Shown: in pieces, positions 1 through 7,250 of the stretch
Position numbering within the stretch: position 1 is the first letter of the stretch
How the letters are laid out: each line of letters opens with the position of its first letter
Origin: a virus
Lineage: Duplodnaviria > Heunggongvirae > Uroviricota > Caudoviricetes
Virus record (IMG/VR): IMGVR_UViG_2690315994_000027
Location: 1 to 13,542 of that record
Direction: 5' to 3' (one strand)
DNA length: 13,542 bases
Notes under the pieces: generated by a model
The model's database searches: none
The model's input: only the letters and a program-made list of their open reading frames with translations
What the model was told of the DNA's origin: nothing
Translations under genes and position numbers: made by a program

Positions 1-342
1 ATGATGAAAAAAAGTATTCTGGCGTTTCTGTTACTCACCAGTTCTGCAGCGGCGCTGGCTGCACCGCAGGTGATTACCGTCAGCCGTTTTGAAGTGGGTA
101 AAGACAAATGGGCGTTTAATCGCGAAGAGGTGATGCTGACTTGCCGACCGGGTAATGCTTTGTATGTCATCAACCCAAGTACCCTCGTGCAGTATCCTTT
201 AAACGATGTCGCACAGAAGGAAGTTGCCAGTGGGAAGACTAAAGCCCAACCCATTTCGGTGATTCAGATTGATGATCCCAACAATCCCGGCGAAAAAATG
301 AGTCTGGCACCGTTTATAGAACGAGCTGAAAAACTCTGTTAA
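1..342 (+). CDS. yebY: Periplasmic DUF2511-family protein (YebY-like), host chromosomal gene
   Basis: 113-aa ORF with typical signal peptide ([22 protein letters not shown]); matches my recollection of E. coli YebY; stop TAA at 340-342 followed by hairpin terminator; lies next to SdsR as in the K-12 pphA-ryeA/B-yebY locus. Not searched. Confidence 0.7.
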
Positions 343-371
343 TTACCTAAAATAGCCTTTTGATTTCCAAT

Positions 372-413
372 AAAAAAACCGCCTCAGTTCTTTCACCAGA
401 ACGGGCGGTTTTT
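372..413. terminator. Bidirectional intrinsic terminator downstream of yebY
   Basis: A-tract 372-378, stem CCGCC 379-383 / GGCGG 404-408 with inner GTTCT 387-391 / AGAAC 398-402 pairing, T5 409-413. A-run on one side and T-run on the other make it usable in both directions. Confidence 0.55.
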
Positions 414-486
414 AACATTTAAGCTGATGACCACCGCGCTTTTTATTGACCATTTTGCACGCAAACTGGAAAGCCTGGCGTCGTCA

Positions 487-497
487 TCTATTCTTAA
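487..497 (+). promoter_or_regulatory. Sigma-S type -10 element (TCTATTCTTAA) for SdsR
   Basis: Sequence resembles the RpoS -10 consensus TCTATACTTAA; sits 4-6 nt upstream of the proposed sRNA 5' end at about 501; no good -35, as is common for sigma-S promoters. Confidence 0.45.
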
Positions 498-500
498 AGG

Positions 501-603
501 GCAAGGCAACTAAGCCTGCATTAATGCCAACTTTTAGCGCACGGCTCTCTCCCAAGAGCCATTTCCCTGGACCGAATACAGGAATCGTATTCGGTCTTTT
601 TTT
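501..603 (+). ncRNA. sdsR: SdsR (RyeB) RpoS-dependent small RNA
   Basis: About 103 nt non-coding stretch beginning GCAAGGCAACTAAGCCTGCATTAATGCC and ending in a perfect terminator hairpin plus T8; matches my memory of E. coli SdsR/RyeB and its genomic context beside yebY. Boundaries approximate. Confidence 0.6.
571..603 (+). terminator. Intrinsic terminator (3' end of SdsR)
   Basis: Perfect 9-bp stem ACCGAATAC 571-579 / GTATTCGGT 587-595, 7-nt loop, then CTTTTTTT 596-603. Confidence 0.75.
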
Positions 604-604
604 A

Positions 605-631
605 ATTGTATTTAAAATCAATCAGTTGCAA
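605..631 (-). promoter_or_regulatory. Predicted minus-strand sigma70 promoter, candidate promoter of the antisense RNA RyeA/SraC
   Basis: On the minus strand: -35 TTGCAA (plus 626-631), 15-16 bp spacer, -10 TACAAT (plus 605-610). A transcript would run antisense across SdsR toward the bidirectional terminator at 372-413 (about 225 nt). Confidence 0.3.
616..628. promoter_or_regulatory. IHF consensus site in the attL P' arm
   Basis: AATCAATCAGTTG fits WATCAANNNNTTR exactly; lies between the presumed core (SdsR 3' end) and the tandem arm repeats, like H' in lambda attP. Confidence 0.45.
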
Positions 632-636
632 ACGTC

Positions 637-668
637 TCCCCGAAATTCCCCGAAATTTACTCGAATTT
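637..668 (+). repeat. Three tandem ~10-bp direct repeats, candidate integrase arm-type binding sites
   Basis: CCCCGAAATT at 637-646 and 647-656, degenerate third copy ACTCGAATTT at about 658-668; located 70-100 bp downstream of the int stop codon, analogous to lambda P'1-P'3. Confidence 0.45.
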
Positions 669-734
669 CTGTATTCCGGTCTTTTTTGGTTATATCACAA
701 CCAAAATACATTTAACAATCCATTTACGTTAAAA

Positions 735-1811
735 TCAGAGCAATAAGTACGTTTTTTCTCTCTCATCAAGATACATTTTTGTTGTCTTCTCCGATGTGTG
801 GCCAAGTAGACGCTGAGCAAATTCTTCTCCACATGTTTCTTTGTACAATCGTCCAGCCAGACTTCTGATCTCGTGAAAAGTTGGTGGGTTTTCACTGAAC
901 TGGATACCTGTTAATTTTCTGGCTGCGACAAATTTTTTTGTCAGGCCATCCGGGTGAATGCTGCCGTCAGGGCTGTTTTTTCTAATTCCGGCACTGATTA
1001 GAAAATCTCCCCGGCTTACCAGGCGGCACCGTTCAACTACTGTACCAAGACGTAGACCAGCGACAGGAAGGCTGAGTGACAGGGGGATAGCAATCATCAT
1101 TCCTGTCTTAATTTGCCTGATGTGGAGACGATCATCATAAATCTCACTGAACCGCATATTCGTTATGTCTTCGCGACGTTGTCCTGTTACAAGGGCTAAG
1201 TCCATAGCTAATGGGAACCATGCCGGAAGTTGATCTGCTGCCTCCCTGATGCAGTTGTATGTCTTTAGTTTCAGTCGTTCTCTTGTAACTACTATTTTCG
1301 GTGCTCTTGTTGGCGTTACTGGATTTTGAGATATACGTCCTTCAACAATGGCCTCGCGAAACATATCAGACAACACAGAACGCATTGATCCTGCCATTGT
1401 GTTTTTCCCTCCTTCAATCCACAAATCAAGAAATTCGGCAATATGGCGAGTGGTTATTTCTGTCAGTAAAATCCCTCCTAATTTTTCTTTTATTGTCTCC
1501 AGTTGATTTACCCGAGTTTTATAAGTATTTCTGGACACTTTTCTCCTTATAAGAATTGTTTTGTAACGTTCAATCCAGTCTGCCATAGTAAATGAGTCGA
1601 ACCCTTTAAGTTTTTCAATTAAGGCAGCAGGAGAGTAGTTTTTGTATATATAATGATTTGCTTCAATTGCCTGCGCTACTGCATCTCTTCTTGAAATTTT
1701 ACCTAGTGTAAATTCTTCTTTCGTCAGAGGGTTGCGCCAGTAATATGCTTTGTCTCTCCTTCGATATGTTAAGTTTCTAGGCAAATTGGGATCGTATTTT
1801 TTCCGCTGCAT
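735..1811 (-). CDS. int: Tyrosine site-specific integrase (lambda Int family)
   Basis: 358 aa; N-terminal arm-binding-like region ([27 protein letters not shown]) resembles lambda Int; C-terminal catalytic motifs ([11 protein letters not shown]... [14 protein letters not shown]) with terminal Tyr; adjacent to the att arm. Confidence 0.95.
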
Positions 1812-2058
1812 TTTTTAACTTCTCCAGTAACGGACTGTCTCTCCCTTGTCGCCCATTGGGCTGATGGTGTGTTATATCGGTATCAACCTTATTCGGGTTG
1901 ATATAGAAAGCCTCCGGAACTACCCTGTAACTCCTCCCGTGTAGTTCAGGTGCAGGATAAATGTTTCCATTCCTTGCCCACCGTCTCAGCGTTGATATTG
2001 ATGGTGGGTTATCCGGATATCTGAGTTTTCCCCACGTTTTGAGCGTCACAAGATTCAT
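1777..2058 (-). CDS. xis: Excisionase (Xis)
   Basis: About 93 aa; LTLKTWGKL...STLRRWARNGNIYPAPELHGRSYRV resembles lambda Xis (LTLQEW...VRRW...FPPP...GREY); 3' end overlaps the int start by 35 nt; start ATG at 2058 chosen because AAGAGG lies 7 nt upstream (the track's ATG at 2064 has 1-nt spacing). Confidence 0.8.
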   Translation of the reverse strand: MNLVTLKTWGKLRYPDNPPSISTLRRWARNGNIYPAPELHGRSYRVVPEAFYINPNKVDTDITHHQPNGRQGRDSPLLEKLKNAAEKIRSQFA

Positions 2059-2164
2059 TGCCATACCTCTTACGATATGACCGCCAGTAAATATACAGAA
2101 TACTGGCGGGTGTGGTTGATTTTTAATAATCAGCTATGAAGTTCTAATTTGTATATAATGCAAC

Positions 2165-2353
2165 TCACGAGGACAGAAGTTTCTCGCAATTAAAATTTAT
2201 CAGCTTTACTTTCTGCTCTCTGGACACGCCTGCTTCTTTTTTCCCTGAGAGCATTTTTTCGCATTCTGATTTCGTTAATTTAGATTTTGAATATCTTGTC
2301 CAGTTAGTAGGAGTGCCACCTTCTTTTTCAATAGTGGCAGTAATTTTATACAT
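2165..2353 (-). CDS. Small basic hypothetical protein (62 aa), translationally coupled to lar (position of Rac ydaC)
   Basis: ATG at 2351-2353 lies inside the lar 3' end (ATGTATAA overlap) with GGAGG 5 nt upstream; the track's longer 86-aa version starts inside lar in another frame. Confidence 0.5.
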   Translation of the reverse strand: MYKITATIEKEGGTPTNWTRYSKSKLTKSECEKMLSGKKEAGVSREQKVKLINFNCEKLLSS

Positions 2354-3405: not shown

Positions 3406-6076
3406 TTGCATACTCCTTAGCCCAGCGGGGCAGTGATAACGTTTTAATAGCTGGCCATTCATCGGTATTCAGGCAGTCAGCCAGGGTCCTCAGATTGCGG
3501 TGATATTCCTGCTGGCCTGCCAGTTTTGCTTCTTCGCCCATCATGAAAATCTCAACCGGGTAACGTCCGCATTCAACAGTTGTGCTGGCAACCAGAAAAA
3601 CGAAAGTTGGCAGCACACCAAACTGTGCTTCATAACCGTCACTGTAGAATGCATCCTGAACGTGATAGCGGTAGTCGTAATAAGCCGTTTTGAATCGTTG
3701 AATATCCGCTGTGGTTTTCACGTCCATGATCCAGTGAAATTCAGGGATAATTTTGTCCGGACGGCACCGACACAAAATTCCTGTTTCAGGATCTTCCCAG
3801 TAAATTGATGATTCAGCGTGTCCGGCGCTTTCAACAAGCCATTGACCCAGCGGCAAAGCCATAACGCTCTGATACATGAGTTCAATTTTCCGGCCTTCTT
3901 CGGCAGTGATAACCGTTTTTCCTGTGCTTGCGCATTCCATCAGAAACGCTTTCTCCTCTTCTTTTCCGGCGGTTGTACGGCGGTTAAATTCAGGTGCCAC
4001 GATAAAGCGGTTACTGAATTCTTCCGGTTCAAGTACACGGCAGTGGAAAGCGGTTCCTAAATCGAGCGTTTTTGTCTTTGTGGTGTCCACTGGGGCATTT
4101 TTACGCCACAAATACAGAGCCGGAGTATCAGCAATGTCGTCGAGCTGAGACTTACTGACACCGGGACCCGCGTGGTAATTCTCATTCGAAATTCCGTAAT
4201 AAATACCAGGCTCTATGTCTCCTGCGATTACGGGATCTGCGACTTCGCCAGTTTCATCACTGCAATCGCGATGCGGATCGCTGCCAGCATTCTCCTTGTG
4301 TGGATGTTCAGCGCCTTCCATTTTCTCCGGCTCATTTTCCCGAACTTCAACCTGATTCTCGTCATCGAATGTTTCCTGATATGTTGCGTCGCCCATCACC
4401 GCACCACAGTCAGGGCAGTTATCCCCGCCAGACTGACCGCAGGCGGTGCAAACTTTCTCCGTTTCCTGTTGTTGCACTACTGGCTCAGGCTGTTTCGTTT
4501 CTGGCTCGTTTTGTTGCGTATTTGGGTCGTTCTGTTCCGCTTTCTGGTCGTTCTGTTCCGTTTCTGGCTGATTCTGGTATATAGAGTCGCGGGTCTGGAT
4601 CCCCTTAACCCATTTCGGGTCATTCGGGTCGCTAATCCCTTCAACAAATTCTCCGCGAGAGGCAGCCAGTAATTTGTCTGCATCGACAGGATTTTTTGGC
4701 GGAATGTTTTTCCGGGCTTCATGGAGTTCTGCCCGCAGTTCCAGATATTTCGCATCAACAGAATTTACCTGTGACTGAGCATCCAGCGGCTGCGTGTCCT
4801 GATGATGTTCAGTTGCATCCGGTTCCACTGTTTCAGCCGTTGCCTGTTCATCTGCCATTGCGCCAGATGGTTGCGGTTTTTCTTCGTCATCCTGTTTTTC
4901 TTCTTCTGTTACACGCTGCGGCATCGGGGCAGAGGAGCGACCACAGGCAATATCCACGATTTCTGGATCAGGGTTGGCATGATCGGTTTCAATAAGTACC
5001 TTGTTCAGATATTCAGTGACATGCGCAGTGATGACCTCGATACCAATTGGTGCTTCTTTCACGGCCGCAACCACGATGGCACGGGAATAATCCAGCCCAC
5101 CAGGCATGGCGATGAATTTGTCGCGGAAAACAGAAAAGGGCGGTTTATTTTCAGCGATAATTTCCTCGACACGTTTAGCGTGTGCCGGATGAAGGTTATA
5201 AATGTCCACGTCCATTGAACGAGCCAGTACGCCAGTGGCTACGTCGCGCGCCAGTGACGTCAGATCGTGAACGAAACCTTCGCCGCGATCGGTGAGGTTC
5301 CCGCCGCCAGCATTAGCGCCGGAAGCCGTGCGCGTGATGCGTGAAACACGATTTCCTTTCATCCACTCTTTTGTCAGCAGACCGCGATCGGTGTAGTCTG
5401 CGTCCAGGTATGCTTCGAAAAAAGCAGTCATCAGCCCCAGACTTGAATTGCCAGGATTAGGGAAAACTTTGTCAGTATCACGAACCAGTCTGTGAAGATC
5501 GCGAATCTCCAGCGGGTCGAGCAGGCTGGTTTTGTGGGAAACAGCCAGGGCAGTAACAGCTGGTAGTTCTTCAGCCCGTGCAATATGTAATACCTGGAGT
5601 TCGTCACGTGAAACGTGCGTTACCGGTTTTTCGCTGCCGTGTTGAGCAAGCCAGCGAATGGACAGCTCTTGGCCAGAAATCGGGAGTGGCATATTCTCCT
5701 CAATCTCAGTCATGTCTTCGCCATTAACATTGGTATTGTCAGTGCTGGCTGTTTTGTCCTGCGCAGAGGATGAGGGCGCGATAAATACCATTGTGATGCC
5801 ATCTTCCCCGCCTTTTTCGTAACGGTTGCAGAATTCCGTATCAAATACGCCTTCTGGTGGGAGGTCATCAACAACGGGCAAATTGACGCGAACAGGTTTT
5901 TTGAAGTCATCTTCATCGTATCCAGCATCGTCAATCGCAACAGCACCACGGGAGATGGCAATGGATAATTTTTTCGCTTCAGCCCAGTAGAAACCGCCTT
6001 TAATACCGAGACGTTTTCTTACTTTGTCATTTTTTGCTTCGTAATACAGTGGGTAAACTTGTTTATCGGTGCTCAT
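3398..6076 (-). CDS. recE: RecE exonuclease VIII (5'-3' dsDNA exonuclease)
   Basis: 892 aa; long central and C-terminal stretches ([42 protein letters not shown] ... [10 protein letters not shown]) match my recollection of RecE; the N-terminal about 100 aa and a linker repeat appear to differ from the K-12 protein as I remember it. Confidence 0.95.
4484..4567 (-). repeat. Four in-frame 21-bp tandem repeats inside recE (heptad peptide repeats [28 protein letters not shown])
   Basis: Direct repetition visible in the DNA (GGTCGTTCTGTTCCGCTTTCT / GGTCGTTCTGTTCCGTTTCTG / related flanking units); frame preserved. Confidence 0.7.
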
Positions 6077-7081: not shown

Positions 7082-7125
7082 AAAAAGGGGCGGCAGGGCA
7101 GCCACGGAGTAGAACTGATGCCGCC
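7082..7125 (-). terminator. Possible weak terminator for leftward transcription (tL-like)
   Basis: On the minus strand: GGCGGCA ... 23-nt loop ... TGCCGCC then CC and T5 (plus A5 at 7082-7086). Long loop and CC spacer make it weak. Confidence 0.25.
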
Positions 7126-7250
7126 AAAGACTACACATAGCAATTGTCGTTATTTACAACCGGAGGCGCACTCCCACCATTTAAATTTAACAGACAAGAC
7201 CGACTCTTTATGAATACCGGAAATGCGCCTTCGTGTTGTGCGCCTGTCTT

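Follow-up and report, generated by a model that had tools for sequence, protein, structure and literature searches.

The left end of the viral DNA stretch analyzed here (13,542 nucleotides, hereafter the window) carries the host gene yebY and, a short distance further on, the 3′ end of an integrase gene, which raises the question of where and by what kind of event the foreign DNA was joined to the chromosome. A preliminary description, made from the letters alone, had placed the attL of a lambda-style prophage at the 3′ end of the small-RNA gene sdsR (ryeB). Our analysis leads to the same reading: with a probability of about 0.9, positions 560-735 are the attL of a lambdoid prophage that entered the sdsR terminator by lambda-type site-specific integration. 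This reading was borne out by Rfam, by junctions in complete genomes, by attP sequences and by the geometry of the arm repeats, and the element positions noted before (terminator, IHF motif at 616-628, repeats at 637-668, int) were correct to within a base or two. Of the prophage, the window covers the leftmost 13 kb; data on its far end come from related genomes.

The open reading frame at 1-342 (plus strand) is yebY, which lies 5′ of sdsR and is annotated at the matching position in every E. coli genome. The sdsR gene, a sigma-S-dependent small-RNA gene, occupies 504-603 on the same strand. A comparison of this region with Rfam, suggested in the preliminary description, matched the full SdsR_RyeB model (RF00111, model positions 1-100 of 100) with 118 bits against a gathering score of 38. 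In all species examined by Fröhlich et al. (PMC3333887) sdsR lies downstream of yebY, and the match in the window is likewise located 3′ of yebY. The conserved body of the antisense RNA RyeA (SraC) was found on the minus strand at 463-607 (RF00101, 177 bits). The 3′ ends of RyeA were mapped to +261 to +270 (PMC6610125), which corresponds to about position 376 of the window if RyeA +1 is taken as sdsR +141, and a hairpin at 372-409 between yebY and sdsR, with runs of A and T alongside, fits this mapped end on the minus strand. The native RyeA, 272 nt long, starts about 39 to 41 bp past the 3′ end of SdsR in K-12 (PMC6610125). The end of the Rfam RyeA model coincides with the att boundary in K-12 as well, and for annotation purposes a full-length Rfam RyeA match should not be equated with an intact ryeA gene.

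In each of the 5426 complete E. coli genomes the window matched host DNA as far as base 604, and in the alignment with K-12 identity likewise stopped at 604 and did not continue past it, as foreseen in the preliminary description for prophage-free E. coli. The match carried on into int in 228 of the 5426 genomes. The attR junction was present in exactly 228 genomes, each genome with attL also having attR, and an uninterrupted sdsR-pphA junction was present in 5191. The prophage is ~47 to 49 kb long in related complete genomes, and the closest complete E. coli genome matches 93% of the window with 98% identity. The possibility that an earlier integration left a decayed P′ arm as the sdsR-pphA spacer of K-12 was rejected, as alignments to nine P′ lineages gave z values between −0.01 and 1.9 relative to shuffled sequences and only a 9-mer was common to the spacer and the P′ arms.

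The att core shared by attL, attR, attP, and attB is a 27-bp block at 578-604, which spans the last 26 nt of SdsR and reaches 573 with one mismatch. The preliminary description had proposed to search the opposite prophage end for a directly repeated core; the 27-bp copy was indeed found there in a related genome (strain OkiPb01691), the window's own attR being outside the window, and the empty-site (attB) copy is present in K-12. The attR sequence reads ...ttgttgacgaaa + ACAGGAATCGTGTTCGGTCTCTTTTTA + tctgttaaaag and is followed by pphA. Contiguous P-core-P′ sequences (attP) were identified in PP818812.1, the IMG/VR contigs L042 and L069, ZC-S1_prp, and a Flyfo siphovirus. Within the core, the window has the phage-type bases A589 and T598, whereas the host-type bases of K-12 are G and C. 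The phage-type core was found in 210 complete E. coli genomes, all of them within the 235 genomes with an interrupted site, and 11 of 12 genomes sampled from the remaining 5216 had two mismatches to the window (97.1% identity). Because the bases at 589 and 598 are phage-type in attL and host-type in attR, the exchange occurred to the left of 589, and these polymorphisms bound it to 578-588 on the basis of one attR and one attP, with the allele counts in support.

The SdsR terminator hairpin lies at 569-597 on the plus strand. Its arms, ACCGAATAC and GTATTCGGT, comprise 10 nt each, are 100% complementary and are separated by 7 nt; folding predicted an 11-pair stem at 569-597 with the loop AGGAATC, followed by seven T residues up to 603 (−15.8 kcal/mol, z = −4.4). 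Judged from the sequence, this loop (580-586), about which the region is symmetric, probably represents the 7-bp overlap, with strand exchange taking place in or near it, and the two terminator arms are putative core-type Int sites B and C′. The phage-type bases A589 and T598 show that the phage supplied the terminator's 3′ half (the last ~17 to 24 nt of SdsR) including the U-tract, in agreement with the earlier proposal that the phage restores the terminator. The U-tract of the restored terminator is longer than that of the native one, and SdsR is probably kept intact in the lysogen, with a 7-U tail replacing UCUCUUUUU. A restored terminator stronger than the native one was also considered and rejected, the predicted folding energy being −15.8 kcal/mol for the window and K-12 alike.

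To the right of the core lies the IHF consensus AATCAATCAGTTG (616-628, plus strand), a predicted site that would be the counterpart of lambda H′. It is the only exact match to the consensus WATCAANNNNTTR in the 13.5-kb window, where 0.84 matches are expected; as this count alone is at chance level, the match is meaningful because of its position and conservation. The consensus starts +33 from the overlap center both here and in lambda, and its ATCAA...TT core is retained in most of the diverged P′ arms. An exact tandem pair of TCCCCGAAAT follows at 637-656. Three candidate arm-type repeats can be delimited on the plus strand: P′1 (CCCCGAAATT, 638-647, +55 to +64), P′2 (CCCCGAAATT, 648-657, +65 to +74), and an imperfect P′3 (ACTCGAATTT, 7 of 10 positions, 659-668, +76 to +85). 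The lambda sites P′1, P′2, and P′3 are located at +54 to +63, +64 to +73, and +75 to +84, so that the starts +55/+65/+76 compare with +54/+64/+75 and the spacing is 10 and then 11 bp in both systems. The composite motif YCGAAWWT-N3-YCGAAWWT was found once in the window against 0.03 expected occurrences.

When Int alone served as the query, genome contigs yielded just two near-identical loci, whereas a search of viral contigs with an alignment was much more productive. Twelve representative P′ arms were aligned, comprising 11 lineages and one deletion variant with Int proteins 51 to 100% identical and host flanks ~78 to 85% identical to E. coli. The core, the three [CT]CGAAW repeats, and a copy of the right half of the core described below were retained in 11 of 11 intact P′ arms while the DNA between them diverged, and the 10- and 11-bp spacing was kept in all 11 lineages, down to 51% Int identity. 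Diverged relatives in other host genera are integrated at sdsR with the same arm layout and spacing. On the opposite side of the core, the motif CCGAAAW occurs at −148 in the same orientation in every enterobacterial attP examined; its sequence and position suggest that it is the counterpart of lambda P1, which has the same orientation and lies at about −142.

The int gene (735-1811, minus strand) encodes a lambda-family tyrosine integrase of 358 amino acids with the Pfam domains PF00589, PF22022, and PF09003. The arm-binding domain PF09003 (Arm-DNA-bind_1) was detected at residues 4-61 with 28 bits against a cutoff of 22. Together with the lambda-like distances of the IHF motif and the repeats, this domain agrees with the core/H′/P′1-3/int layout given in the preliminary description. 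The protein matched the lambda Int structure (PDB 5j0n) with an E value of 7e-72, and its N terminus could be aligned from residue 8 onward with the full-length lambda protein. The six catalytic residues (R-K-H-R-H-Y) are all in place as R212, K235, H313, R316, H338, and Y347. Identity to lambda Int amounts to 38%, with 97% of the protein's length aligned, and identity to HK022 Int to 41%; in Salmonella-type relatives the Int identity is 70 to 74%. The start of int is overlapped by xis (1777-2064, minus strand; Pfam PF07825 Exc, 4e-14). The early region in the window is lambdoid, with xis, recET, an HTH repressor pair, a YdaT-family protein, and replication genes, and it is Rac-like in containing recE, recT, and ralR/RalA. 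In related genomes lysis, terminase, capsid, and tail genes follow up to attR.

The locus thus resembles lambda attP and attL in the order of core, IHF site, three tandem arm repeats, and int 3′ end, with xis upstream, and the two Int proteins have the same domains and catalytic residues. By analogy, the core-binding domains of Int would recognize the two stem arms of the terminator and swap strands across the 7-nt loop AGGAATC (580-586), IHF would bend the P′ arm at 616-628, and the N-terminal domains of Int on the two CCCCGAAATT copies and ACTCGAATTT would bridge to the core in the way known from lambda. Excision would give the attP junction ...gacgaaaACAGGAATCGTATTCGGTCTTTTTTTAATTG.... The two systems differ in several respects. 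The target is the sdsR terminator here and the gal-bio attB in the case of lambda. The arm consensus is C[CT]CGAAATT, which is like the core half-site CCGAAT, compared with C/AAGTCACTAT in lambda; arm-type and core-type sequences are unrelated in lambda, whereas CCGAA occurs in both here. Furthermore, int of lambda overlaps P′3, whereas here int ends 67 bp past P′3, and the additional interval contains a conserved C′ half-site copy that is absent from lambda.

This copy, GTATTCCGGTCTTTTTT (671-687, plus strand), hereafter called the pseudo-core, follows directly after P′3 and is nearly identical to the right half of the core at 587-603, 84 bp upstream. It had been missed in the preliminary description, as had the displacement of the ryeA promoter and the pphA link considered below. 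The pseudo-core is conserved in every lineage of the clade, including integrases with as little as 51% identity. The 84-bp distance corresponds to about eight helical turns, and in one natural variant exactly the interval between the core half and the pseudo-core is deleted. A back-up terminator formed by P′3 and 671-687 was unsupported: the predicted energy was −4.9 kcal/mol (z = −0.67) in the window and ranged from −1.9 to −7.4 kcal/mol over 11 lineages, with differing structures and arms without covariation, and the T-run is absent in the most distant relative. The pseudo-core might represent a fourth class of Int sites, with a part in shaping the recombination complex, or a means for the prophage to lock itself in. 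The RyeA body lies downstream of int and is encoded by the same strand, so that transcription of int from the prophage would continue through sdsR in the antisense direction, and in the integrated state only, Int expression and the toxin-antitoxin-like SdsR/RyeA pair might regulate each other in the manner of sib retroregulation. We regard this combination of an extra Int-binding or lock-in site and sib-like cross-regulation as a speculative and rather unlikely proposal.

The att architecture could also be a fossil in a defective, locked-in prophage remnant that no longer excises in this strain. Only 13.5 kb of the element is visible, the early region resembles that of Rac, which is defective in K-12, and degraded relatives exist in IMG/VR, for example L010, which has lost the IHF site as well as the three repeats; moreover, a replication gene is frameshifted in the related OkiPb01691 prophage. 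We nevertheless judge this explanation to be improbable, since int and xis are intact open reading frames, int with all catalytic residues, and core, IHF site, and repeats show no mutations in comparison with free-phage attP. The finding of attR in all 228 genomes with attL also argues against a remnant, as does a 47.5-kb genome with a 97.8% identical Int that was deposited as an isolated phage. That the element is instead a nonphage integrative island, such as a satellite or PICI, has been considered because satellites also use integrases of this family (such elements are covered in PMC10111431), but the full lambdoid early region in the window and the lysis-to-tail genes extending up to attR in related genomes leave this explanation next to no credibility.

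Another reading concerns only the P′ arm, where the CCCCGAAATT-type repeats and the IHF-like motif could be regulatory, serving as promoter or operator for a chimeric RyeA, or could be chance features of AT-rich DNA. A sigma-70-like sequence, TTTGCA-16-TACAAT, overlaps the IHF motif on the minus strand (632-605), CCGAA is common to the repeats and the core half-site, and the 5′ part of ryeA is replaced upon lysogenization in Salmonella, as stated in PMC7380047. However, one such promoter-like match was found where 1.1 were expected and its −10 element is not conserved among the variants, so that it was rejected as a phage promoter for chimeric RyeA. A conserved TGnTATAA followed by C, G, or A was noticed on the minus strand at ~689-697, but as the final T is missing in every lineage, it was not scored as a promoter element. 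The number, orientation, and 10/11-bp spacing of the repeats and their lambda-like distance from the core are kept while the flanks diverge, the matching P-arm motif at −148 makes sense only for a recombination complex, and Int possesses an arm-binding domain. A regulatory or chance origin is therefore very improbable, and we retain the reading as attL.

Integration at this place is a known event, as phage insertion into the final 23 bp of ryeB has been on record for Salmonella since 2008, and the present locus is a clean, well-supported case rather than a discovery. The hot-spot report that the preliminary description had mentioned for ryeA/ryeB exists (Balbontín et al. 2008, J Bacteriol 190:4075, as quoted in PMC7380047): according to this secondary account, the attachment site of PhiW104 lies within the last ~23 bp of ryeB and is internal to ryeA, and PhiW104 lowers ryeA and raises ryeB expression in Salmonella. 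By the hot-spot definition in PMC7380047, with foreign DNA joined within the last ~23 bp of ryeB and inside ryeA, the present junction, whose core is 578-604, belongs to this hot spot. As far as this description goes, the two cases are alike in that the sRNA 3′ end is regenerated and the 5′ part of ryeA replaced on lysogenization, the host being E. coli here and Salmonella for PhiW104. A similar neighborhood is described for the ail prophage vB_Yen_24-YE00064 of Yersinia enterocolitica (PMC12653942), with a 27-bp att site between integrase and YebY-family genes; neighborhood and core length are by description as here, and an sRNA is not mentioned by its authors. The claim that integration into sRNA genes is much rarer than into tRNA genes needs qualification, since 19% of E. 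coli integration loci adjoin sRNA genes (Bobay et al. 2013, PMC3603311), which are thus not very rare targets. In elements at tRNA and tmRNA 3′ ends, such as CP4-57 at ssrA (Williams 2002, as cited in PMC3603311), the symmetric stem-loop of a stable RNA gene likewise forms the core and, to go by the same citation, the element brings a replacement 3′ end that keeps the RNA functional. Unlike those targets, the RNA here is an sRNA with a regulatory function, and an antisense gene overlaps it.

In K-12, SdsR is restrained by RyeA, and read-through from the sdsR promoter transcribes pphA (PMC6610125). In related lysogens the native ryeA promoter and the sdsR-pphA cotranscription link are displaced by ~47 to 49 kb. 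From the K-12 transcript map and the Salmonella precedent, ryeA in the lysogen would lose its own promoter and its first ~40 nt, which are moved to attR, and read-through from the sdsR promoter into pphA would be abolished. With the antisense gene and the cotranscribed downstream gene rewired in this way, integration would not be neutral for the locus. About 4% of complete E. coli genomes have a prophage in sdsR, and a single integrase clade targets the sdsR terminator in several enterobacterial genera. As the links to RyeA and pphA are physically cut, strains with and without the prophage may differ in SdsR-dependent stationary-phase regulation.

The window begins in the host gene yebY (1-342), followed by SdsR/RyeB on the plus strand (504-603; Rfam, 118 bits, full model) and, on the minus strand, its antisense partner SraC/RyeA (463-607; Rfam, 177 bits). 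SdsR ends in an 11-bp terminal hairpin with the loop AGGAATC (569-597), then seven T residues. A sequence match to the IHF consensus at 616-628, the sole exact one within the window, precedes three tandem repeats in which TCCCCGAAAT is present in two exact copies and a third imperfect one. These are best written as CCCCGAAATT for P′1 (638-647), CCCCGAAATT for P′2 (648-657), and ACTCGAATTT for the imperfect P′3 (659-668). The int gene (735-1811, minus strand) has its stop codon at the junction side and encodes 358 amino acids with the Pfam integrase, central, and lambda arm-binding domains; the excisionase gene overlaps its start. The preliminary description, made from the sequence alone, had reported the SdsR gene, hairpin, IHF consensus, repeats, and int 3′ end, all of which are present as written.

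The same description had proposed that a prophage is integrated at the SdsR 3′ end, where identity with prophage-free genomes should stop. The alignment with K-12 diverges after base 604, and window 300-604 was the only part of a 701-bp query spanning the junction that matched in 5426/5426 complete E. coli genomes; in 228/5426 the match ran on into int. In the reverse test, an uninterrupted K-12-type sdsR-pphA junction was found in 5191 genomes, and therefore the site is interrupted in 235, of which 228 carry this integrase. The core was also found repeated at the far prophage end: in strain OkiPb01691, the prophage comprises ~46.8 kb and ends a short distance before pphA, where the junction has the sequence phage ...ttgttgacgaaa / ACAGGAATCGTGTTCGGTCTCTTTTTA / host tctgttaaaag. 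Exactly 228 genomes have this attR junction, and strain E2865 has ~49.3 kb between its two junctions. P arm, core, and P′ arm are contiguous, forming attP, in PP818812.1, a deposited phage genome whose Int is 97.8% identical, and in two IMG/VR contigs. The common core is the 27 bp at 578-604, reaching 573 with one mismatch.

In seven genomes the sdsR-pphA junction is interrupted without this integrase (e.g., NZ_CP116976.1, hits H71 and H165). The break in strain CUVM53 is a few bases past the core, so the sdsR spot is also used by another kind of insertion. PP818812.1 is named "Actinobacillus phage vB_Apl-pPE4" with the host label Actinobacillus pleuropneumoniae. Its sequence shows 97% identity to the E. 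coli prophage end described here, and its attP core matches enterobacterial sdsR; the host label looks doubtful.

Positions 589 and 598 are A and T in the window and in attP, and G and C in K-12 and in the attR copy. This distribution of phage-type and host-type alleles places strand exchange within 578-588 and makes attL from 589 inclusive rightwards phage DNA. A 70-bp query ending at 604 was a 100% match in 210 genomes; the remaining 5216 showed 95-99% identity, and 11 of 12 sampled matches stood at 97.1%, equal to two mismatches; these counts fit a confinement of the phage-type alleles to interrupted genomes. The hairpin arms ACCGAATAC and GTATTCGGT are a perfect inverted pair around the 7-nt spacer AGGAATC (580-586). 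Inverted arms around a short spacer are the classic geometry of tyrosine recombinases, and we infer that the arms act as core-type sites and the loop as the overlap region. The Flyfo siphovirus, the most distant relative found (Int 51%), keeps GTATTCGGTCT with a different loop, AGGATTG, as expected if the loop need only match the host.

Over 97% of its length, Int shares 38% identity with lambda Int and 41% with HK022 Int; residues 8-353 align to lambda Int structures, and R212, K235, H313, R316, H338, and Y347 are present. When both att sites were measured from the overlap centre, with lambda attP taken from its own sequence, the IHF consensus started at +33 in both, and P′1, P′2, and P′3 at +55, +65, and +76 here compared to +54, +64, and +75 in lambda. 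A P-arm motif in the same orientation lies at -148 ([CT]CGAAAW) here and at about -142 (P1) in lambda, and was found in every enterobacterial attP examined. The integrase evidence and these distances bear out the claimed lambda-style layout.

A viral-contig scan queried with an Int alignment yielded 80 loci, nearly all with int followed by the same core and SdsR. Where Int identity was 70-74%, identity of the host flank to E. coli reached only about 78-85%, and these loci therefore belong to other genera. Twelve representative P′ arms were aligned, 11 lineages and one deletion variant. The 11 intact arms retain the core, three [CT]CGAAW repeats spaced 10 and then 11 bp, and the greater part of the IHF motif ATCAA...TT; their spacer sequences diverge freely, and repeat-flanking bases shift in step per lineage (CCTCGAAATT, GTCCGAAAAT, ATCCGAAATTT, and others). 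Such a pattern would be expected of protein-binding sites.

Directly after P′3, GTATTCCGGTCTTTTTT at 671-687 is a near copy of the core right half plus T-run (587-603), 84 bp downstream, and ATTC(C)GGTCT is retained in every lineage examined, including the 51% relative. Read as a terminator, this pseudo-core gave no consistent RNA fold; our best guess is an additional Int site. One IMG/VR prophage variant (IMGVR_UViG_2728369554_000022) lacks the 84 bp from core to pseudo-core, exactly the interval between both copies. SdsR is fused directly to ...TTTTTTGGTTATATCAC..., so neither the IHF site nor any of the three arm repeats is left, and this prophage is probably locked in.

Further inward, the early region is Rac-like, given recT and recE beside RalA/RalR-like genes; Rac in K-12, however, occupies a different att site. 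The RalA antitoxin sRNA (2169-2347, plus strand; RF02694, 221 bits) is antisense to a DUF1187 ORF and adjoins a RalR-like toxin ORF (ORFs 2165-2425 and 2346-2552, both minus strand). The antisense sRNA DicF, which inhibits cell division and is known from the Qin prophage, has a match at 7088-7139 (minus strand; RF00039, 60.9 bits). A tandem repeat in the recE coding region (4480-4576; 21/42 nt, 4.1 and 2.3 copies, 73-77% matches) would encode an in-frame 7-aa repeat. At the right end of the OkiPb01691 prophage, ~800 bp from attR, lies a cargo gene for a type III effector, nleG7 (23251-23901 of that locus).

According to Choi et al. 2019 (PMC6610125), the K-12 SdsR 3′ end lies at +100 to +102 and RyeA +10 corresponds to sdsR +132, which puts the RyeA start about 39-41 bp past that end. 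RyeA has a length of about 272 nt, its transcription interferes with that of sdsR, and most pphA transcription is read-through that began at the sdsR promoter (PMC6610125). The junction at 604 should thus split the RyeA body from its promoter, which with the first ~40 nt would lie at attR, a distance of about 47-49 kb as judged from related lysogens; pphA would be cut off from the sdsR promoter, and SdsR would be preserved with UCUUUUUUU replacing UCUCUUUUU. In the window (604-607) as in the K-12 locus (1805-1808), the SraC_RyeA Rfam model stops no more than 3 nt from the att boundary, so the full-length RyeA match does not contradict a lost native 5′ end; cross-species ryeA conservation evidently stops at the insertion point. 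A sigma-70-like TTTGCA-16-TACAAT (605-632, minus strand) in phage DNA faces the RyeA body and shares bases with the IHF motif; its occurrence does not exceed chance and its conservation is poor, but its location would suit the start of a chimeric RyeA. Salmonella phage PhiW104, integrated in the last 23 bp of ryeB, is reported to lower ryeA expression and raise that of ryeB (Balbontin 2008, quoted in PMC7380047).

The report of a ryeA/ryeB insertion hot spot mentioned in the preliminary description exists: phage integration at the ryeB 3′ end was published in 2008 (Balbontin, as cited in PMC7380047). It is listed among sRNA-targeting events (Bobay et al. 2013, PMC3603311), "RyeB" serves as a site label in island catalogues (PMC10111431), and a description from 2025 gives a Yersinia prophage a 27-bp att adjoining yebY (PMC12653942). 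The junction is real and its interpretation correct and well supported, and it is already known in kind; to this known kind, the lambda-identical geometry, the conserved pseudo-core, and the E. coli prevalence figures are modest additions.
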